NCBI GenBank assembly: GCA_963836205.1
Contig: CAWIIV010000017.1
Span: forward strand, 1 to 64,000
Reading direction: 5' to 3'
Length of the DNA stretch: 64,000 nucleotides
Origin: an uncultured Acidimicrobiia bacterium
Lineage (GTDB): Bacteria; Actinomycetota; Acidimicrobiia; Acidimicrobiales; AC-14
The notes below the pieces were generated by a model. That model did not search any database. It was given only the letters and a program-made list of their open reading frames with translations, and was not told the origin of the DNA. A program made the translations under genes and the position numbers. Below, piece by piece: positions 41,676 to 50,707 of the stretch (positions are counted from its first letter, which is position 1; every line of letters starts with the position of its first letter).

Positions 41676-41888
41676 TCAGCGGGCACTCGCGTGATGGAGC
41701 CACCGCATCGTCCAGTCGTGACGGAACGCGGCGTGCAGCTCCGCCTGCGAGAACGCACACCCAAGCTGGCTGGCGAGCTCGATCAGCTGGCTGAGTGACG
41801 GCGCCGGCCCCCACGACTCGATCTGCTCCTGGACGTCTGGGCGCCGGCGCACCAGATGAAAGAAGTCGAGGGCGTCTTGGATCGGCAT
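41676..41888 (-). CDS. Nif11-like leader-family peptide (70 aa)
   Basis: MPIQDALDFF...PDVQEQI...LIELASQLGCAFSQAEL matches the Nif11 pattern; GAGGG RBS; 8 nt after the previous stop. Confidence 0.75.
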   Translation of the reverse strand: MPIQDALDFFHLVRRRPDVQEQIESWGPAPSLSQLIELASQLGCAFSQAELHAAFRHDWTMRWLHHASAR

Positions 41889-41896
41889 CCCTCGCG

Positions 41897-43966
41897 TCAC
41901 CGCCTCACACGGGCACTGGTGGCGAGTGCAGCCGCTACCGCCGCGGTCGTGAACACGCGGTTCTGGTCGAGCGCGTCGATCGTCCGCTCCTGTCCGGCCC
42001 CGACAAGCTGTCCGGGCATGGGCACGCGAAGGCGCGCCGAGGCAGGCCAGCTTCCGTCCACGTGTTGCGCGCCCAAGAGCCACCGCACCGCCCGCGCCTC
42101 GTCCGCCCCGAACGTTGTCTCGTGCCCCAGGATTCGCAGGCACCACGCGGTCGCCCACGCCGACGGTTCTCCGTCGACGCTGTGGACCGCGCCCGATGCG
42201 GTGAGCCGGGTCCGCGCCCAACCGGCGGCAGTGGCGCGCGAGGCGGGCAGCACGTCGGCAGCGAGTGCGGTCGTGTACTCGTCGTCCCACCACCAGTAGC
42301 TCTGCCAGTTGCCGGCGTCGCCCTGCTGGCGGCCCAGGTAGTCGACGGTCACCGGGCCGAGGAGCGGCGCCGCGGCGGCGGTCACGCAGTCGTGCGTCGC
42401 CTGCCAGCCCGCGAACGACGCGTCCTCCGGCAGGCGCGTGAAGCGCCGAATGGCGTCTCGCTCGGCGTAGGTCGTGATACCGCCCTCGGCCGAGACGTGC
42501 CCGGCGAGAAAGGCGTAGGCCGCAGCGACACGTCCGTGATCGAGGACACGAAGGCCGCCGGCCAGCCGCAGGGCCCACGCGGTGCTGTCGGCGTCGGCGG
42601 GCGTCAGCCGGTTGTAGCCCCAGCCCGGCTCGTCGGGGCGCCGGCGGAGCAGCGCCTCCCACGCCCGTCGGGCCGCTCGGCAGGTCTTCTCGCCCGGCGC
42701 CTCCAGCAGGCAGGCGCCCACGAACGCGGTCACCCACTCGTCGCTCGGACCGGCCGGCAGGAGGAAATCGGACCAGCGCCCCGTGTGCGCCTGCCGGGAG
42801 AGCAGGAAGTCGATCGCACCGGATAGCGCCTGGGCGACCGGGCGCTCCGAGCTCCCCGAAACGGCCGCGTGAGCCCCCGGGCGAGGCGTCCGCCAGACAT
42901 GCCCCGCACCCCAATACCCCTTGGCGACAGCCTGCTGCCCGGCGACCGTGAGCTTGACGTGGGACAACTGGCGCTCGGTCGTGGAGAAGTGATCAGCGGG
43001 GGCGGCGAGTGTCGCCGCGATCCACGCCGCCGGCCACTCCCCGGGCGCTTCGGGCGGGGTCAGCACACCAGGCACGTCAAGCAACGCTGCCGCATTGGCG
43101 GCCGTGCAGAGCCCCTCAGCCGTGAGTTCTTCGAGGAGCTCGCGCCAGCGGGGCTCTTGCGGCGGCTGGATGGCGAGCACACATTCCAGGCCGAGGTGCG
43201 GGTAGACGACGGGGCCGACGTCGAGGCAGACGGTGACCCGGTCGACGCGGTCGTACGCCCACCCGGCCCAGTGCTCGACGGCCCCCAGCGGGCCGTTCCA
43301 GCCGACCGCCTCCAGGAACGGGGCGAGCTCGTCGAGCCGTAGCCGCTTGACGTTCACCCGCACGGCTTCGGTCGTGCGGCCCAGCATGGCGCCGAGAAAG
43401 CTCACCGAGGCGCCCGTGGGGCACGCGGCAAAGCAGCCCGCCAGGCTGTCGGCCAGAGCTGGCGGCCACGGCGCAGGCAGCAGGAGCGCGAGGGCGGCCT
43501 CCGCCACTGCTTCACCGTCGGCCTCGGGGACGGAGAGGAAGACCGATGGGGTCAAGGCGGGCTGAGGGGCGGGGTCGAGGTCGTGCTCCAGGAAGACCTC
43601 GGCGATCCCGCGGTGCACCAACGTCGTGGGGTCGGCCCAGGCCGCGCTGAAGCGGTGGAGCCGCGCCCACGCGCCATCACCCACCCTCGCCGCCGGCTGG
43701 GTCGCGAGCAGAAAGTCACGGAGCAGCGCGGGCTCTCCGTCGTCACGCCGAATGCACTGCTGAAGCTCGATCGTGGGCGCGGGGTCGGCCAACCGGCACT
43801 CCAGGGCGACCCGTGGGATGGGCGCCAAGCGCCGGGTCAGGTCGGCCAGGTTGCGTCGATTGACGGGCGTGTCCCAGGCTGCCGGGAGGGCAGGCAGAGT
43901 GTGGGCCAGTAGTCCGCCAGCGCCGCGGTCAACCTCGCAGCCGCCCCATCTCGGCCAGCATCGCAT
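41897..43966 (-). CDS. Fusion of prenyltransferase-like domain and class II terpene cyclase (prenyltransferase/squalene-cyclase repeat) domain
   Basis: C-half: RQAHTGRW, WGYN...DADSTA, QQGDAGNW, QHVDGSW; N-half: LECRL, FLEHDL, CLDV, GLEC, SHVK, AKGY. Confidence 0.7.
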   Translation of the reverse strand: MRCWPRWGGCEVDRGAGGLLAHTLPALPAAWDTPVNRRNLADLTRRLAPIPRVALECRLADPAPTIELQQCIRRDDGEPALLRDFLLATQPAARVGDGAWARLHRFSAAWADPTTLVHRGIAEVFLEHDLDPAPQPALTPSVFLSVPEADGEAVAEAALALLLPAPWPPALADSLAGCFAACPTGASVSFLGAMLGRTTEAVRVNVKRLRLDELAPFLEAVGWNGPLGAVEHWAGWAYDRVDRVTVCLDVGPVVYPHLGLECVLAIQPPQEPRWRELLEELTAEGLCTAANAAALLDVPGVLTPPEAPGEWPAAWIAATLAAPADHFSTTERQLSHVKLTVAGQQAVAKGYWGAGHVWRTPRPGAHAAVSGSSERPVAQALSGAIDFLLSRQAHTGRWSDFLLPAGPSDEWVTAFVGACLLEAPGEKTCRAARRAWEALLRRRPDEPGWGYNRLTPADADSTAWALRLAGGLRVLDHGRVAAAYAFLAGHVSAEGGITTYAERDAIRRFTRLPEDASFAGWQATHDCVTAAAAPLLGPVTVDYLGRQQGDAGNWQSYWWWDDEYTTALAADVLPASRATAAGWARTRLTASGAVHSVDGEPSAWATAWCLRILGHETTFGADEARAVRWLLGAQHVDGSWPASARLRVPMPGQLVGAGQERTIDALDQNRVFTTAAVAAALATSARVRR

Positions 43967-44948
43967 CGCAGATGCGGGGGAGGGCCGCCAAGCTGTCGGG
44001 TCGTTCCACCGTGCGGACCGGCGTCACGCCCACCAGGTCGGCCAGGGTCGACAAGCGCTGGGCGTCGATCGTGGGGACGAGCCAGGCCGGAGTGAGGAGC
44101 TGGGCGACCACGTGCGGCACGGCTGCCGCTGGGGAAAGGGCCGTGACCCGGGGCTCCTGCAGCAGTTCGGCGCGCGGGGGCAGCAGGAAGATGCCTGCCA
44201 AGGGGATCGGCGCGGCGCCGGCGGAGTGATCCGCGCCCTCGGCGAAGGAGACGACTCCCTTGTCCTCGAGTCGCTCGTAGTCCACCCCGGGGAGCTCGGG
44301 CGAGCGCGGCCAAAGCGGCGTCGCGACCACCTCGGGGATCCCGAGCGCCTCCCGGGCCTGAGGCATCAGCCGGATGGCAGGTATGCCGGGGAAGATGACC
44401 CAGCCGCGGGCCTCCCGGGCGAGGACGGCCACGTCGTCGCTGATCGCGGCGCAGCCCCGCTGGATCAGCGCGGTGACGGTCGTGGATTTGCCCGCTCCCT
44501 GCACGCCCGCAACGACGAAGGCGGCGCCCCGCCACCCGATGACACCGGCATGGAGCGCAAGACGTCCGAGCCGGGACAGCAGGTAGCCCATCACGGTGCT
44601 GAGCAGGAGGGTGGAGACATGAACTGGCGGGATCTCCTGCGTCCAGGTGACGACGACACGTGTCCCGGCGGGTTCGACGTCGAACTGGACGTGATGGCGG
44701 CCGTACCCGAAGCGGAGTCGGGTCCAGCCCTCCGTATACCCAGGAGCAGCTGAAACCGTCAACCACCCGCCGGTCTCCTCGACGATCGTGCGCGACCCGG
44801 GCGCCGTCGGGTCTCCTTCGGCAGCGACTCCGGCCCAGTCGACGACCACGTCCGGTGACCCCGTGCGCACCGCGCGGAGGCCCGACGAATGAAGGGGGAC
44901 GTTGCACTCCAGCGTCAACCCGTAGACCGCGTAGCGGTACGGGCCCAA
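43929..44948 (-). CDS. HPr-kinase-like lasso peptide kinase
   Basis: LHAG, GVQGAGKST, SDD; abuts the precursor. Confidence 0.85.
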   Translation of the reverse strand: MGPYRYAVYGLTLECNVPLHSSGLRAVRTGSPDVVVDWAGVAAEGDPTAPGSRTIVEETGGWLTVSAAPGYTEGWTRLRFGYGRHHVQFDVEPAGTRVVVTWTQEIPPVHVSTLLLSTVMGYLLSRLGRLALHAGVIGWRGAAFVVAGVQGAGKSTTVTALIQRGCAAISDDVAVLAREARGWVIFPGIPAIRLMPQAREALGIPEVVATPLWPRSPELPGVDYERLEDKGVVSFAEGADHSAGAAPIPLAGIFLLPPRAELLQEPRVTALSPAAAVPHVVAQLLTPAWLVPTIDAQRLSTLADLVGVTPVRTVERPDSLAALPRICDAMLAEMGRLRG

Positions 44949-45171: not shown

Positions 45172-46953
45172 CTACTTCGCGCCGGCGCTGCGGTGCCAGC
45201 AGCGCCGGTGGCGCAGCCAGTACGCGAGTTCGACGGGTGGACGCTGCTTCGCCCAGATCTCTGCTTGCACAACCGCGGACGCACGTTGCACGGCGCCAAG
45301 CCAGCGCGAGTCGACGTGGCCGGCCATCTCCGGCGCGGCCAGAAGGTCGATCTGCCAGCCGGGCACGCCCGACTGCCTCTGCTGTTCGAGGGTCACGTTT
45401 CCGGGCATCACGGTCTTGGGTCGCGTGCGTACGCCCTCCGGCAAGCGCTCGCCCATGGCGACGCGCAGCAGGCGCTTGTCTTCGAGCCATGGCACCGGCG
45501 GGATGGCCAGCACGAACTCGAGTAGGCGCAGGTCGAAGAAGGGGAAGCGGATCGAGAGGGGGCGACCGTTGTAGCCGGCGTCCGACCACGCGAAGAGCGC
45601 TCTCCAGAGCGGCGCACCGGCCATGCCGGCCTGCTCGCGCCGGGACATTTGCCGGAGGAGAGTGGCGCGGTCGGCCAGGTCCAGGTCGCGGGCCCACTGC
45701 CCGTTGACCCAGGCCGGGAGTGGGTCGGGCTGACGCAGTCGCCGCCGCTCTCGACCGCTGTCGGCCAACCGGCGCAGGGGCCATTTCCAGGAACCGTGGC
45801 GCAGCGCGGCCCGGACGCGGGGCCACGACAGCTCAGGCGGCGCGAGGAGTGGGTCGCCGCCGTACCCCGTCAGCAGCACCGGGGCGAAGGCTGCGGTGCG
45901 CCGGCAGACCTCCTCCATAACCCACAGCGTGGCGGCTCCGGGTTCCGGCGGCACCCAGGCGGGCTCGGCTGGGGGCTCGGCGCGCAGGTACGTCTCGCCG
46001 TTGAGCAGCTCGACGGGAAAGCCCGAATGAGCGGCCACCTGCGCCGCCAAACGGCCTTCTTGGTCGTGGATCAGCGTGGGGTACTCGATGGAGAACGCCC
46101 GCAGGTCGAAGGGCTGACCGTTCGCCTTGAGTCGACGGTGGGCGGTCACAGCGATGCTCGACGAGTCCATCCCCCCGCTCAGCTGGCTCCCGGCGCGTTG
46201 GGTGCGCAGGCGGTCCCCCACCGCCTGGTCGAAGAGCAGCCGGAAGTGCTCGGCGTACTCCTCCGGCCTGCGGTACCGGAGGGGGCGAGCAGGCCGGGGC
46301 AACCTCCAGTAACGGTCGACGCGCAGCCCACCTCTGTCGCAGGTGAGCTTGTGGCCTGCGGGCACGCGCCGAATGGCCGAGTACCCGGTGGCCGCGTCGT
46401 CGAGCGTCACCTGGAACAGGGCGACCTCGGCCAGAGTCTGTTCGTCGAGGGTGTCGGGGACACGGGGATGGAGCAGCAGGCTGTGCAGGGTGTTGCCGAC
46501 GAGCAGGGTGCCGCCGGGTTGCGAGTAGAAGAGTTGGGCCACGCCGAGCTGATCCCGTGCCGCCAGGAGGCGCTCCTGGCGCCCGTCCCACAAGACGAAG
46601 GCAAAGTCACCGATCAGGTGGTCCAGGCACTCGTCGCCCCACACGAGGTAGGCGTGCAGGATCAACTCGACATCGGTTGCGCCCGCCGAGACATCGCAGC
46701 TCCGTTCGCGCAAACGCTGGACGAGGGAGGCACGCCCGTCGATGCGGGCATCGGCTGTGATCCACACACCACCGCCGAGGCTGCACGGCTGGCATTCCTG
46801 TTCGGACTCGACGCTGGTGCGGAAGAGCGTGTGGCCGAGCCCCACGTGATCGTCCGCCCAGACGTTCCGGGCATCCGGGCCACGAAAGGCCATAGCGGCC
46901 GTCATTCCGGTGAGCAGTGCAACGTCGAGGGGGGCGCCGTCGGAGTTGAGCAT
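45172..46953 (-). CDS. Lasso peptide cyclase (asparagine synthetase-like)
   Basis: RGPD, ARID, GDFAF, RDQLG, LSGGMDSS, TGYGGD, RFPFFD; no N-terminal Cys. Confidence 0.9.
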   Translation of the reverse strand: MLNSDGAPLDVALLTGMTAAMAFRGPDARNVWADDHVGLGHTLFRTSVESEQECQPCSLGGGVWITADARIDGRASLVQRLRERSCDVSAGATDVELILHAYLVWGDECLDHLIGDFAFVLWDGRQERLLAARDQLGVAQLFYSQPGGTLLVGNTLHSLLLHPRVPDTLDEQTLAEVALFQVTLDDAATGYSAIRRVPAGHKLTCDRGGLRVDRYWRLPRPARPLRYRRPEEYAEHFRLLFDQAVGDRLRTQRAGSQLSGGMDSSSIAVTAHRRLKANGQPFDLRAFSIEYPTLIHDQEGRLAAQVAAHSGFPVELLNGETYLRAEPPAEPAWVPPEPGAATLWVMEEVCRRTAAFAPVLLTGYGGDPLLAPPELSWPRVRAALRHGSWKWPLRRLADSGRERRRLRQPDPLPAWVNGQWARDLDLADRATLLRQMSRREQAGMAGAPLWRALFAWSDAGYNGRPLSIRFPFFDLRLLEFVLAIPPVPWLEDKRLLRVAMGERLPEGVRTRPKTVMPGNVTLEQQRQSGVPGWQIDLLAAPEMAGHVDSRWLGAVQRASAVVQAEIWAKQRPPVELAYWLRHRRCWHRSAGAK

Positions 46954-46970: not shown

Positions 46971-47038
46971 CCCGCTCATCCGCTAGGCCCGCTCATCCGC
47001 TAGGCCCGCTCATCCGCGAGGCCCGCTCATCGGCTAGG
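46971..47038. repeat. Four 17-bp tandem repeats between RRE and cyclase genes
   Basis: CCCGCTCATCCGCTAGG twice, then CCCGCTCATCCGCGAGG and CCCGCTCATCGGCTAGG. Confidence 0.9.
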
Positions 47039-47312
47039 TCCGTTCGACGTGGATCAACCCGAGATCGGCGAGTTCATCGAGCATCCGTTCGAGGTCGCGG
47101 CGCAGCGTCGTCTCCTCGACCTCGTACTCGCTCAGCAGAGCCGCCACGATGGGATCGAGGGTCCGGTGCTCCCGCAGCAGTTGCCAGACGCGACTTCCGA
47201 CTTCGTCCAAGCCGTAGTAGCGCTCGGTGCCCAGGTGAAGGAGGACGGTCTCCTCCCCGAGCTGTTGGTGAAGAACGGCGTTGGGGACCGTGATCTGCTC
47301 GGGAAGACTCAC
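47034..47312 (-). CDS. PqqD-family RiPP recognition element (lasso B1)
   Basis: ETVLLHLGTERYYGLDEVGSRVWQLL...EYEV...DL...L...GLI. Confidence 0.92.
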   Translation of the reverse strand: MSLPEQITVPNAVLHQQLGEETVLLHLGTERYYGLDEVGSRVWQLLREHRTLDPIVAALLSEYEVEETTLRRDLERMLDELADLGLIHVERT

Positions 47313-48676
47313 GAAAACGTACCTAGCACCGTGAAACGTTCGAGGTTCTCTCCTCCCGCCACCACGACGTCGCCGCTGTGAAGCCAGGCGTGAGCCTCCA
47401 GCTGCGTCTCCCCGTCCTTGGCGACGCCCAGAGAGAGGGTGCTGGCAATCCCCCGGCGTCGCAGCATGTATTTGCCCGCGAGCGCCTCAGCCAGGCAATG
47501 GCCGCGCCAGGGCACGCGCCGGCGCATCCTCTCCAGCGCCCACGCGACGCGCTCCCGGTCGGCGAGCGTCGCGGCGTCGTTCTGACTGGGGGTCTCACCG
47601 ACCCGTTGGCGGAGGGCGCGGGTAAGCCAACGAAAGGGCAGGGCGGCAACACCCAGTCGCGCCACCGCCAGGCACACAGCTGTGTCGAGGAGCAGCAAGC
47701 GGTTGCTGCCGGCCACCCGTCGGGCCACGACGAACCGAGCTGCGGGGCCGATCGACGTGGCCAACCCCCGCCAGTAGACGGCGTAGCCGGCGACGAGGGA
47801 CGGCGTCTGGGCTGACACGTAGCGAACCTTGGCCGGGGATGGGATGAGGGTCCACCGCACGATCCGGACCTTGTCACGGATGGTGGGGGCCGTGCGCAGG
47901 CGGGAGAGTGACATCACCCCTCGAGGCGCCCACGGGCGTTTGCGGTGGTAGGCAGAGTCGGCAAATGCCATGTGAGGAAGGCCGAGGCGGCCGGCGAGAT
48001 CCACACCCTCGGGGAGCCGGCGGAGGCTCAACCCGACGACGCCGGCTATCCCGAGCCGCTCCGCCAGCTGGACCACCTCTTGCCATCCTTCGAGTGGCAG
48101 CGCATCGAGGGCGCGGCGGAGGTCCTCCGCAGTGTGAAGGGTGAACCCGTGCTGCATCGCATGCACGACGATGTGGAGCGCAATGCCGATGCGGTCGAGG
48201 ACCCGCACCTCGACGCCGCCCACCAGCATCGCTTCACACCGGGCGTCGAACGCATCCCACAAGAGGCTGTCCGGAACGTTCAGGTCCGGGATGTTGCGAT
48301 GGAGGTCGACCTTGCCGCCTGGACGCGCCCCCGAGTCCGGAGCACGGGTGAAAGGGCTCTCGACGGCCTGGGTGCTTCGCTCCCAGGGGTGGAAGTCCTC
48401 GAGCAGCTCGGTGAATCCGAGCGACCGAAGCACCGAGCCCGCGTTGACGAACTGCGACGGCGGGACCAGGAGGTCGGTGTCGCGGTACAGGCGACCCCCC
48501 GCCGGGTAGAGCCAGCGTGCGATCGACGGGCCTTTGAGGAGGATCGCGGGGATGCCGGCATCGTCGAAGGCGGCGATGACCTCGCCAGTCACGCGATCGA
48601 CGTAGAGGGCGCAGGCGGCGTGCAGCGCCGTCTGGTCGGGCCTCGCGTCCGCGACGGCGCCGTCGGATTGCCCCAC
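47309..48676 (-). CDS. Nucleotidyltransferase fused to lasso B2 leader peptidase (start uncertain)
   Basis: LLKGPS...R...DTDLLV, VDLH; C-terminal CLAEALA...LSLGV...EAHAW. Confidence 0.82.
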   Translation of the reverse strand: MGQSDGAVADARPDQTALHAACALYVDRVTGEVIAAFDDAGIPAILLKGPSIARWLYPAGGRLYRDTDLLVPPSQFVNAGSVLRSLGFTELLEDFHPWERSTQAVESPFTRAPDSGARPGGKVDLHRNIPDLNVPDSLLWDAFDARCEAMLVGGVEVRVLDRIGIALHIVVHAMQHGFTLHTAEDLRRALDALPLEGWQEVVQLAERLGIAGVVGLSLRRLPEGVDLAGRLGLPHMAFADSAYHRKRPWAPRGVMSLSRLRTAPTIRDKVRIVRWTLIPSPAKVRYVSAQTPSLVAGYAVYWRGLATSIGPAARFVVARRVAGSNRLLLLDTAVCLAVARLGVAALPFRWLTRALRQRVGETPSQNDAATLADRERVAWALERMRRRVPWRGHCLAEALAGKYMLRRRGIASTLSLGVAKDGETQLEAHAWLHSGDVVVAGGENLERFTVLGTFS

Positions 48677-49095
48677 CAGGGCCGAAGCCCCGCCACGCGC
48701 CACGCCGAATCGTATCGGCTGACAGGGAGGGCCTGCGAGATTCGCGAACTGCGGTGCGGATCCGTCGGACACCCCGGAGGACACCGCGACGTGAGAGGGC
48801 GGCAACGGTTCCCCGCCACTTGCCTCGGCGAGGTTGCGCTGCCGCCGGCTGGATGTGATGCAACAATCGAGGGGCGGTCGGGGGACCGCATCGCTGAGCA
48901 CACGCGAAAGGAGTGGGCGTCCGTGATTCCCGGCCAACGCTGACGTCACTGAACGACGTGGTGGTTCCGCTGAGGGGGTAGCACGCCGGGGCCGACGAAG
49001 GCAGCGACGGTCAACGCCTCCGCAGCAGAGCGAGGGTCGTGCAGGTTCCGGAGCCGCAGGAGCCGCGTCCGAGGAATGGGCCGGCGGGGCAGTCG

Positions 49096-49176
49096 TTTCA
49101 ATGCATTCCACACGGAGCCGCAACGCCCTGACCAGCACTCTCGCGCTGAACAGGGGGGTGCCCGGGGTGGGATTCG
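49096..49176. repeat. att-like duplicate of the tRNA-Leu 3' end and downstream flank
   Basis: About 80-bp imperfect direct repeat of 50646-50725, ending in GGTGCCCGGGGTGGGATTCG. Confidence 0.85.
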
Positions 49177-49569: not shown

Positions 49570-50130
49570 TCACAGCGTGGCCGGGCGAAGGGCGGCGACG
49601 GACTCGTGAAGGCCGACGATCGCGAGCCCGTCGAGCACCTCGGTGGTGGTCATCGGCGGGTTACGCAAGGCGGCAGCCTGCTGTTCGATCACGGCGGCCA
49701 CCGCCTCCAGATCGGCGTGGATCAGTCTGAGGATGAAGTCATCTGGCGATAGAACGGTGATGCTGGGTGGGACGGCAGCCGCTGGGAAGTCACCCAGGTT
49801 CGATGTCACCACGATGTCGGCGCTGGCAACTATGGCGGCGGCGACTACCTGTCGATCGGACGGGTCGGGCAGGTCGAGCTGTTCGATCAGGTGCTCGTAG
49901 TCCCGGACGATCGCATCCGGAACGGCGACGTTCACGAGGCCACGGGTCCGGTCGAGGCGTTCGGCAGGAAGGTCCGGTCGGTCGGCGAGGAGGTTGCTGA
50001 AGCACTCGTCGAGGATCTGCTCGGTCCAGAGCGCCTGGTAGTGGCCTGCGATGGCGAGGCGGAGGAGAAAGTCGCGCACACGGGCGGGGTAGAGCACGTT
50101 GGCGTCCAGCACCGCCACTGGGCGGGCCAC
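49570..50130 (-). CDS. PIN-domain (VapC-like) toxin
   Basis: VLDANVL, ILDE, PDPSDRQV, VTSNLGDF, PDDF. Confidence 0.88.
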   Translation of the reverse strand: MARPVAVLDANVLYPARVRDFLLRLAIAGHYQALWTEQILDECFSNLLADRPDLPAERLDRTRGLVNVAVPDAIVRDYEHLIEQLDLPDPSDRQVVAAAIVASADIVVTSNLGDFPAAAVPPSITVLSPDDFILRLIHADLEAVAAVIEQQAAALRNPPMTTTEVLDGLAIVGLHESVAALRPATL

Positions 50131-50132
50131 GG

Positions 50133-50543
50133 TCAGTACAGGCCCAGGTCCTGCGCTTCGGCGGCCAGGTCGGCGACCGCTTGGAGGCGTCGGGCCTGGT
50201 CGACCTCCCGGTAGAGGAGCACGTCGGCCAGCTTCATACGCCGCCGCGTGCCGACCTTCCGGGACGGGATCTCGCCTCGATCGACGAGGCCAACCACGTA
50301 CGGGCGCGACACGTTGAGCAGGTCCGCTGCCTGCTGGGTGGTGATCTCCTCATCGTCAGCAATAACCCGAACGTGCTCGCCTCGTCGTACGTGATCGAGC
50401 ACATCGGCCAGCACTAACACGGCCGATGCGGGCAGCTCGATGGGCTCACGGTCCGGACCGCTCGGCAGCACCACCACCCGACCACCGCGCAAGGCGACGG
50501 CCGCTGCGGCTGCCTGTTCGGACTCTGACAGGACACTCGGCAT
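50133..50543 (-). CDS. Excisionase-type HTH (HTH_17) antitoxin
   Basis: ITTQQAADLLNVSRPYV...GEIP...VGTRRR; C-terminal AQDLGLY; coupled to the PIN gene. Confidence 0.88.
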   Translation of the reverse strand: MPSVLSESEQAAAAAVALRGGRVVVLPSGPDREPIELPASAVLVLADVLDHVRRGEHVRVIADDEEITTQQAADLLNVSRPYVVGLVDRGEIPSRKVGTRRRMKLADVLLYREVDQARRLQAVADLAAEAQDLGLY

Positions 50544-50707
50544 CCCGACAGGATACGAAATAAACGAAGCGAACGAAACAAGCGTGAGGATTTCCGTCAC
50601 GAAACAGGCGCATGATTGTGACCAAACTCGTGACCACAACGGTCATTTCAATGCATTTCACACGGAGCGGCAACGCCCTGACCAGCACTTTCGCGCCGCA
50701 CAGGGGG

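Follow-up and report, generated by a model that had tools for sequence, protein, structure and literature searches.

A putative prenyltransferase-terpene cyclase fusion protein encoded in a kinase-type lasso peptide gene cluster of an uncultured Acidimicrobiia bacterium

The fusion gene and its lasso peptide gene cluster

The first 64,000 nucleotides of contig CAWIIV010000017.1 (assembly GCA_963836205.1), a stretch of DNA from an uncultured Acidimicrobiia bacterium which is referred to here as the window, harbor a lasso peptide gene cluster in which a gene for a two-domain protein is placed between a kinase gene and a gene for a small Nif11-like protein. Along the minus strand, the genes are ordered as NTP_transf_5-B2, B1, C, precursor, HPr-kinase-like, fusion gene, and Nif11-like (Table 1). 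The N-terminal half of the fusion gene product (P domain) is modeled as an ABBA-type prenyltransferase barrel, and its C-terminal half (C domain) belongs to the MstE-type class II terpene cyclases with a single barrel. The window protein represents a new, uncharacterized fused prenyltransferase-cyclase maturase for peptides that are synthesized ribosomally and modified post-translationally (RiPPs).

All of the features of a kinase-type lasso cluster (B1, B2, C, an HPr-kinase homolog, and a core ending in Ser) are present in the window. The precursor peptide carries the leader motif YxxPxVxxxGxxxxxT, followed by the core TNAAGPNFDGGGGADIYAS, in which F8, Y17, and S19 are present and Trp is absent; the lasso precursor, the Nif11-like peptide, and the HPr-kinase-like gene to which a first-pass annotation made from the sequence alone had referred all proved to be real. 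The genes located beyond the Nif11-like gene are convergent and unrelated.

The fusion gene is present as a single copy in the 4.05-Mb, 25-contig genome, and its third-position G+C content (0.87) is as high as that of the real genes of the window, which has an overall G+C content of approximately 72%. The open reading frame (ORF), as called from an ATG at position 43966, does specify 689 amino acids on the minus strand, but its 5′ end is not family sequence: the first ~23 residues are nonhomologous to the family and poorly modeled, with predicted local distance difference test (pLDDT) values of 35 to 64. The family start is probably a TTG at 43932-43930 which overlaps the stop codon of the kinase gene, as in two relatives (90% and 82% identical proteins), whose TTG or GTG start codons overlap the end of the kinase gene likewise. 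The C-run at 43894-43893 is shorter by one C in the window than in two close relatives, and this places the family TTG out of frame with the remainder of the gene and shifts the first 13 family codons. The missing C is likely a homopolymer assembly error; a real frameshift or lesion, judged from the sequence, is a possible but less favored cause.

Table 1. Coordinates of the fusion gene, its domains, and the surrounding lasso cluster in the window
Feature	Coordinates	Strand	Basis or remark
Prenyltransferase-terpene cyclase fusion gene (putative)	41897..43966	(-)	689-aa ORF as called
P domain, residues ~23-360, predicted ten-strand ABBA-type prenyltransferase barrel	42887..43900	(-)	AlphaFold2, Foldseek, and conservation
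C domain, residues ~375-689, MstE-like monodomain class II terpene cyclase, three QxxxGxW repeats	41900..42844	(-)	Profile and Foldseek
D458-A-D460-S-T462 motif	42581..42595	(-)	Alignment with MstE mutant chains
70-aa Nif11-like protein, conserved tail motif AFRHDW59xMR62	41676..41888	(-)	Starts 8 nt after fusion gene stop
HPr-kinase-like lasso peptide kinase	43929..44948	(-)	PF07475 E 8e-4; TIGR04352 E 4e-8, below cutoff
Lasso precursor peptide, 59 aa	44949..45128	(-)	NF033521 lasso leader 22.4 bits, cutoff 19
Lasso cyclase C (Asn-synthase-like)	45172..46953	(-)	PF00733 E 1e-26; NF033535 E 3e-81, below cutoff
PqqD-like leader-recognition protein B1	47034..47312	(-)	NF033536 E 5e-15, below cutoff
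NTP_transf_5 nucleotidyltransferase fused to lasso leader peptidase B2	47309..49138	(-)	PF14907 E 1e-23; PF13471 E 8e-27

Fold and conserved residues of the two domains

When a profile of 42 homologs was compared with the Protein Data Bank (PDB), MstE was matched at an expect value (E) of 6e-91 over residues 360 to 677, as were the Actinoplanes "prenylcyclase" 6ij1 (E 2e-84), two myxobacterial single-barrel cyclases (approximately E 1e-57), and, at E 4e-20 only, squalene-hopene cyclase; comparison of the single sequence with MstE returned E 2e-51. AlphaFold2 modeled the whole protein with a pLDDT of 91.0 and a predicted template modeling (TM) score of 0.91, and Foldseek aligned the C-terminal half with MstE at E 6.5e-23 (TMt 0.84, 37% identity over ~345 columns). 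The single-barrel class II cyclase that the first-pass annotation had read from short motifs is, therefore, what both profile and structural comparison recover. Its three repeats, RQAHTGRW (391-398), QQGDAGNW (547-554), and QHVDGSW (634-640), all fit QxxxGxW, with the Q, G, and W columns being invariant or almost so in the alignment of the 42 homologs, and its DADSTA string is located at 458-463, where D458, D460, T462, and W464 are invariant in the same homologs. Against family collections, the whole protein matched TED_complement alone in Pfam, weakly (E 4.7e-5, residues 598-685), and squalene cyclase at E 0.07 in NCBIfam; 36 of the 42 homologs touch SQHop_cyclase_C. The TED_complement and squalene cyclase matches were rejected as the identity of the protein, since they reflect the alpha/alpha toroid and are uninformative on the N-terminal half.

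With MstE of Scytonema (PDB 6sbb-6sbg), the C domain shares the D-A-D-[ST]-T motif, the single alpha/alpha barrel, and the QW-like repeats, whereas MstE differs in being a stand-alone enzyme which, according to its PDB titles, acts on geranylgeranyl dihydroxybenzoate. The D109N and D109A chains of MstE read DANTT and DAATT, respectively, where the window protein reads DADST, and D109 therefore corresponds to D460, which we take to be the catalytic acid (proton donor). The Y157F chain reads IRAF where the window protein reads IRRF, which places F509 at the Y157 position, occupied by Tyr in most close relatives, and R337 of MstE falls in an insertion that is missing from the family profile. Both residues, mutated in 6sbf and 6sbg (R337 from the R337A entry), are presumably substrate contacts. 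Because the presumed proton donor is kept and the presumed substrate contacts differ, the sequence fits a different, peptide-borne substrate, on which, by analogy with MstE, the C domain would cyclize a prenyl chain through protonation.

In the N-terminal half, helix pairs alternate with five strand pairs (52-58/66-73, 123-128/141-145, 187-194/202-207, 243-250/254-263, and 327-342/345-359), and DSSP assigned ten antiparallel strands in five alpha-beta-beta-alpha units in two models, namely, that of the whole protein (pLDDT 91.0) and that of residues 23-365 modeled alone (pLDDT 92.2). A Foldseek search of the PDB with this half returned 55 hits at E ≤ 1e-3, and among the matches listed, aromatic ABBA prenyltransferases accounted for 36 of 36, including 6-DMATS (6zrx), DMATS1 with L-Tyr (8day), IptA (7w8u), MpnD, TleC, PriB, CymD, FunA, AnaPT, Orf2/NphB (1zcw), and EpzP; the best neighbor was at E 7e-7, with TM scores of ~0.5 and identities of 9-16% for the matches listed. 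A sequence search of the PDB with the same half returned only one chance-level DnaD-like match (E 0.42), and no fused prenyltransferase-cyclase was present in the PDB copy searched. The ABBA assignment is thus one of fold, drawn from models, with no sequence-family match. The solved enzymes of this fold differ from the window family in that they act mostly on free aromatic small molecules with C5-C10 donors, while the window family has conserved residues of its own. Prior to modeling, an ABBA/DMATS-type barrel had been suggested from the strings LECRL, FLEHDL, LGAML, VRVNV, CLDV, GLEC, SHVK, and AKGY; every one of them lies on a predicted beta-strand, and the N-terminal half models as such a barrel and not as the non-prenyltransferase fold that had been named as the contrary outcome.

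Conservation of the P domain was assessed across 140 of its best relatives, stand-alone or fused, in which E56, E127, D129, R197, R203, D249, E261, H336, K338, K349, and Y351 are 94-100% conserved; R197, R203, H336, K338, K349, and Y351, which lie on strands, reach 98-100%. These residues are all placed on or beside barrel strands in the models, several of them in i/i+2 pairs, and they look like those of an active site rather than of a scaffold. Because the C-terminal half matches MstE by profile and the charged residues of the N-terminal half are conserved to this degree, the motif pattern is judged, at the level of sequence, to be beyond chance.

It could be argued that the N-terminal half is an inert barrel which binds a peptide or partner, and that the cyclase acts on a free prenylated small molecule, as MstE does. 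Such a view would account for the missing sequence match to prenyltransferase families, the TM scores of only ~0.5, and the fact that no prenyl diphosphate synthase is encoded nearby. It would leave unexplained why a dozen charged or Tyr strand residues are conserved at 94-100% across 140 relatives, 70 of them stand-alone, in an active-site pattern, why the P domain is also fused to other domains of alkene-acting families (see below), and why the insertion holding R337, the presumed substrate contact of MstE, is missing from the window family. Since the same architecture is, moreover, reported to be catalytically active in NctPC (accessible portion of PMC13290415), we consider an inert barrel most improbable.

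Linkage to lasso kinases and relatives of the P domain

When one genome was scanned for each species, 118 relatives were identified, among which the best 80 loci were kept and their gene content was assessed by tblastn with the window proteins; several loci are truncated at contig ends, and the numbers given here for the lasso cyclase and B1 are lowered by this. Both domains are encoded at 62 loci, where the kinase gene was found in 61 (directly upstream on the same strand in 45), the lasso cyclase gene in 54, and B1 in 48. At the 18 loci which encode the cyclase domain only, including MstE's own Scytonema locus, tblastn found the kinase in none and the lasso cyclase in none. The two-domain enzyme is, therefore, tied near-obligately to the lasso kinase, and this holds across phyla, the carriers comprising Acidimicrobiia, cyanobacteria, Bacteroidota, sphingomonads, Acidobacteriota, candidate phyla, and others. 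Cultured carriers include strains of Chitinophaga, Pedobacter, Sphingomonas, Nostoc, and Terriglobus.

The only two-domain locus lacking a kinase gene is that of Iningainema tapete (L015, 8885-12187), at which no lasso genes were found either. Upstream of this fusion gene lie a 76-aa peptide with a leader ending in Gly-Gly and the C terminus NQYTP, together with a 190-aa ORF without a Pfam match, and the enzyme may here serve another class of RiPP. In the sphingomonad loci (L027-L037, L044, L068, and L075), the lasso cyclase and B1 genes are carried on the strand opposite that of the kinase and fusion genes, and the cores are nearly identical, with GGGGPAAQPDGAVYNS being encoded in eight loci.

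The P domain itself belongs to a larger family, for which a phmmer search of 1.84 billion representatives returned at least 2038 cluster representatives at E ≤ 1e-3, including 201 at E ≤ 1e-30; despite thousands of relatives, it is without a Pfam or NCBIfam family model. Among the best 150 relatives, 70 are stand-alone proteins of up to 460 aa, 65 are fused to a cyclase, and 12 are fused to an S-adenosylmethionine (SAM) methyltransferase with CMAS-type hits (e.g., P0065 and P0103). A further three fusions are each known from one representative of the 150: P0084, in which the P domain is joined to the CrtC N-terminal lipocalin and lipocalin-like domains of a CrtC-like hydratase; P0178, in which a lasso kinase (30% identity to the window kinase, E 1e-36) precedes the P domain; and P0175, in which the P domain precedes the C-terminal half of a lasso cyclase (38% identity). 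These three could be artifacts of gene calling or assembly. Electrophilic attack on a C=C bond is common to class II cyclases, CrtC hydratases, and CMAS-type methyltransferases, and the recurrence of alkene-attacking partners provides indirect support for a P domain which installs an unsaturated chain.

Fused enzymes of this kind have been published. According to the accessible portion of a 2026 review (PMC13290415, citing Hubrich et al., Chem 2024), the RiPP maturase NctPC is a fusion of an ABBA P domain, which bears little similarity to the cyanobactin enzymes, and an MstE-like C domain, and it transfers geranylgeranyl to Trp prior to cyclizing it; a fused ABBA prenyltransferase/MstE-like cyclase acting on a peptide is, on that account, already known. 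As far as a comparison by description allows, the window protein shares this architecture and the RiPP cluster setting, with B1, B2, C, and precursor in the window and a lasso cyclase in 54 of the 62 related loci. It differs in that the acceptor of NctPC is Trp (PMC13290415, as accessible), whereas the lasso cores of the window subfamily are Trp-free (0/50) and have a conserved Tyr, and in the linkage of this subfamily to an HPr-kinase-like gene and, in many cases, to a Nif11-like protein predicted to dock. The kinase-type lasso clusters already known, namely, those of paeninodin, pseudomycoidin, and Sphingobium yanoikuyae, resemble that of the window in B1, B2, C, the HPr-kinase homolog, the Ser-ending precursor, and the nucleotidyltransferase-B2 fusion, but no prenyltransferase or cyclase is mentioned for them in the accessible portion of the 2021 lasso review (PMC8498205), in which the words prenyl, squalene, and terpen have zero occurrences each.

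Among the papers searched, no characterized lasso peptide bearing a terpenoid was found. The abstract of Hubrich et al. is said to predict, from genome data, that proteusin, Nif11, and lasso peptides carry cyclic isoprenoid units; in that event, a predicted connection with lasso peptides has already been published, and the text or supplements of that study may already list such clusters and treat Nif11-like peptides as precursors. What seems new here is the near-obligate tie to the kinase, the Trp-free cores with a Tyr-x-Ser tail, the predicted Nif11-like docking partner, and the range of fused alkene-modifying domains.

Proposed activity, candidate acceptors, and neighboring genes

It is considered probable that the window protein is a bifunctional peptide maturase, whose P domain prenylates a peptide of the cluster and whose C domain cyclizes the attached chain, a function which by analogy matches the NctPC precedent of the same architecture. 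From the folds and the gene context, we infer that the P domain would transfer a long allylic isoprenoid, probably C15-C20 and supplied from elsewhere in the genome, to one of the peptides of the kinase-type lasso cluster, following which the C domain would protonate the distal double bond via D460 and the chain would cyclize. The probable target of the kinase is Ser19 of the linear precursor, in keeping with what is established for related kinases, and the resulting phosphate would then serve recognition or act as a nucleophile.

Cores were collected from the 80 loci with a strict leader-motif screen, which gave 56 hits, one of them noise (a Trp-bearing ORF at L020); the 50 counted here are those with a ring-forming D or E at positions 7-10. 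Trp is absent from all 50, 49 contain Tyr, 49 end in Ser, and the last Tyr has just one or two residues after it in 36 cores. One core (L007) ends in TYVP, thus retaining Tyr and losing the terminal Ser, as does the NQYTP peptide of L015. Of 401 Actinomycetota genomes searched with the kinase for a contrast set, 35 gave a match, with five unpublished genomes counted among them; the comparison drew on 20 published loci that encode distant homologs of the kinase, and none of these carries the fusion gene. Their 14 credible lasso cores contain Tyr in one case and a terminal Ser in three.

Characterized lasso kinases require only the C-terminal Ser and act on the linear precursor, according to the accessible portion of PMC8498205, and because of this the conserved Tyr is left unexplained by the kinase. 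Since Tyr, moreover, survives at L015 and L007 where Ser does not, Tyr17 is the favored acceptor: given a working enzyme, the conserved Tyr near the C terminus of the lasso tail has about an even prospect of being the prenylated residue. The first-pass annotation had named Tyr17 among its possible targets, together with Phe8, the phosphorylated Ser, and the Nif11-like peptide.

The kinase itself suggests a nonaromatic acceptor, either the Ser phosphate, which would give a phosphodiester-linked terpenoid, or the C-terminal carboxylate. In pseudomycoidin, the phosphate on the terminal Ser is decorated further, and proteobacterial kinases add several phosphates (PMC8498205, accessible portion). 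Within the present data, the kinase gene in 61 of 62 loci (directly upstream in 45), the single kinase-P-domain fusion representative, and the Ser at the end of 49 of 50 cores would fit this view. Prenyl esters on a C-terminal carboxylate are, furthermore, known for cyanobactin prenyltransferases. However, acceptance by the phosphate would give no reason for a Tyr that is as conserved as Ser (49/50 each), it is Tyr and not Ser that is kept at L015 (NQYTP, no kinase) and L007 (TYVP), and prenylation of a phosphate is not known to us for any ABBA enzyme. As an account of the cluster, this reading is judged quite unlikely; given a working enzyme, the phosphate or carboxylate of the terminal Ser would be the acceptor with a low probability.

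The Nif11-like protein offers a third candidate. Orthologs were found in 37 of the 62 two-domain loci, 32 by tblastn (E ≤ 1e-2) and five more by motif, and PF07862 matches 24 of those 32. In full 70-aa numbering, all of the 32 aligned orthologs have A54 and R62, and at least 90% have D58 and W59. Past this motif, the tail is short and varies between copies, some of the alphaproteobacterial ones having no aromatic residue there. Three copies from Actinomycetota/Solirubrobacteraceae (L016:11755-12039, L055:11997-12278, and L057:12007-12297) carry an extra C-terminal tail with a common STVAVVN-like stretch, which is missing from the other orthologs.

Complex prediction, performed with alignments of both partners and 69 of the 70 residues of the Nif11-like protein, placed this protein on the P domain with an interaction prediction score from aligned errors (ipSAE) of 0.68 (runs 0.65, 0.69, and 0.68) versus 0.26 for the best control; the calibration mark for this score was attained by 58 of 80 complexes of solved structure and by 2 of 110 pairs that were mismatched, and it is only roughly valid with custom alignments. 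At least 86% of contacts agree between runs, and the partner pLDDT is at least 85. The predicted interface, on P-domain residues 48-49, 81, 303-328, and 360-362, is made up of helix 313-321 together with the base of the last hairpin, the conserved P304 and W311 being among its residues, and W59 contacts 303-305 and 327. The conserved strand residues lie outside this interface, and docking is predicted on the outer face of the barrel. From these models, we read the Nif11-like protein as a subunit that docks on the P domain, possibly acting as a leader in trans, and not as a second precursor. The leader of a substrate would be expected to dock likewise, which leaves the models open to a substrate reading.

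According to that reading, the Nif11-like protein would be the true substrate or a second precursor, geranylgeranylated and cyclized at Trp59 (or Trp63), and the lasso peptide a separate product. Its gene begins 8 nt past the fusion gene, the protein is a member of the Nif11 leader family, it has Trp in 30 of the 32 aligned orthologs, its predicted binding to the P domain is leader-like, and its variable tail past the motif resembles a RiPP core; the characterized fused enzymes, furthermore, act on Trp (PMC13290415, accessible portion). Yet this Trp sits within the conserved A54, D58, W59, and R62 motif that forms the modeled interface with 303-305 and 327, at the opposite end of strand 9 from H336 and K338, and it is replaced by Cys or Phe in two orthologs. 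The gene was, moreover, not found in 25 of the 62 loci, including, within the flanks searched, all of the sphingomonad loci; several alphaproteobacterial tails have no aromatic residue past the motif; and the kinase in 61 of 62 loci, like the fusions of the P domain to a kinase and to a lasso cyclase, would be left unexplained. The evidence disfavors the Nif11-like peptide as the substrate, and we regard this reading as unlikely. Given a working enzyme, Trp59 would be the acceptor with a probability well below that of Tyr17 and a little above that of the terminal Ser.

A fuller version of the preferred reading can be offered only tentatively, namely, that a polycyclic terpenoid is linked to Tyr, and not to Trp, of a phosphorylated lasso peptide, that the stand-alone Nif11-like protein is needed as a leader in trans outside the barrel, and that the P domain is a general module which places alkene chains on peptides, paired with three kinds of alkene-attacking domains and, singly, with the kinase and the lasso cyclase.

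Several observations weigh against prenylation and cyclization of the lasso peptide by the fused enzyme. Paeninodin, whose cluster is without the fusion enzyme, ends in Y-D-S, and the Tyr may, therefore, have another reason. The contrast in Tyr content is weak, as it is drawn from sequences of remote kinase homologs in distantly related clusters and the related loci are nonindependent. With respect to the P domain, its similarity to solved prenyltransferases is limited to the low TM scores and identities given above, residues 1-370 have no Pfam or NCBIfam match at E ≤ 10 in either the window protein or the 42 homologs, and a role of the conserved residues as diphosphate or Mg ligands is a guess from the models. 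In the C domain, the window protein has Phe (F509) at the Y157 position of MstE. The Nif11-like gene, being present in only 37 of 62 loci, cannot be essential everywhere; no prenyl diphosphate (polyprenyl) synthase is encoded in the window, the three of this genome being located on contigs C7 and C20; and the apparent frameshift lies close to the start of the fusion gene. Finally, the only characterized fused enzymes named in the accessible portion of PMC13290415 act on Trp, which is absent from the lasso cores.

If the proposed product is formed, a phosphate and a cyclized C15-C20 unit on a lasso peptide would constitute a new scaffold, that is, an amphiphilic, knotted peptide with a sterol-like anchor. 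The conserved Y-x-S tail provides a concrete acceptor hypothesis, and because the widespread carriers of this subfamily include cultured strains, the prediction is testable at the bench. The predicted Nif11-like docking subunit would, in addition, represent an unusual route by which a leader-dependent enzyme gains access to a leaderless product.

The NTP_transf_5-B2 product scored 100 bits against NF033537 (cutoff 33). In pseudomycoidin, an NTP_transf_5-type domain adds hexoses to phosphoserine (PMC8498205, accessible portion), and, by analogy, the product of the window cluster may therefore carry a further group on its phosphate. The first ~180 residues of the NTP_transf_5-B2 ORF are without a match, and its true start may be located further downstream.

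The flanking genes of the window (GNAT, PIN/HTH, MazG, Mfd, amylase-like, and NlpC/P60) have no link to isoprenoids. On the minus strand, an HTH_17 gene (50133-50639) and, after it, a gene for a PIN-domain protein (49570-50130) are located directly upstream of the lasso cluster, and the two have the appearance of a toxin-antitoxin-type pair.

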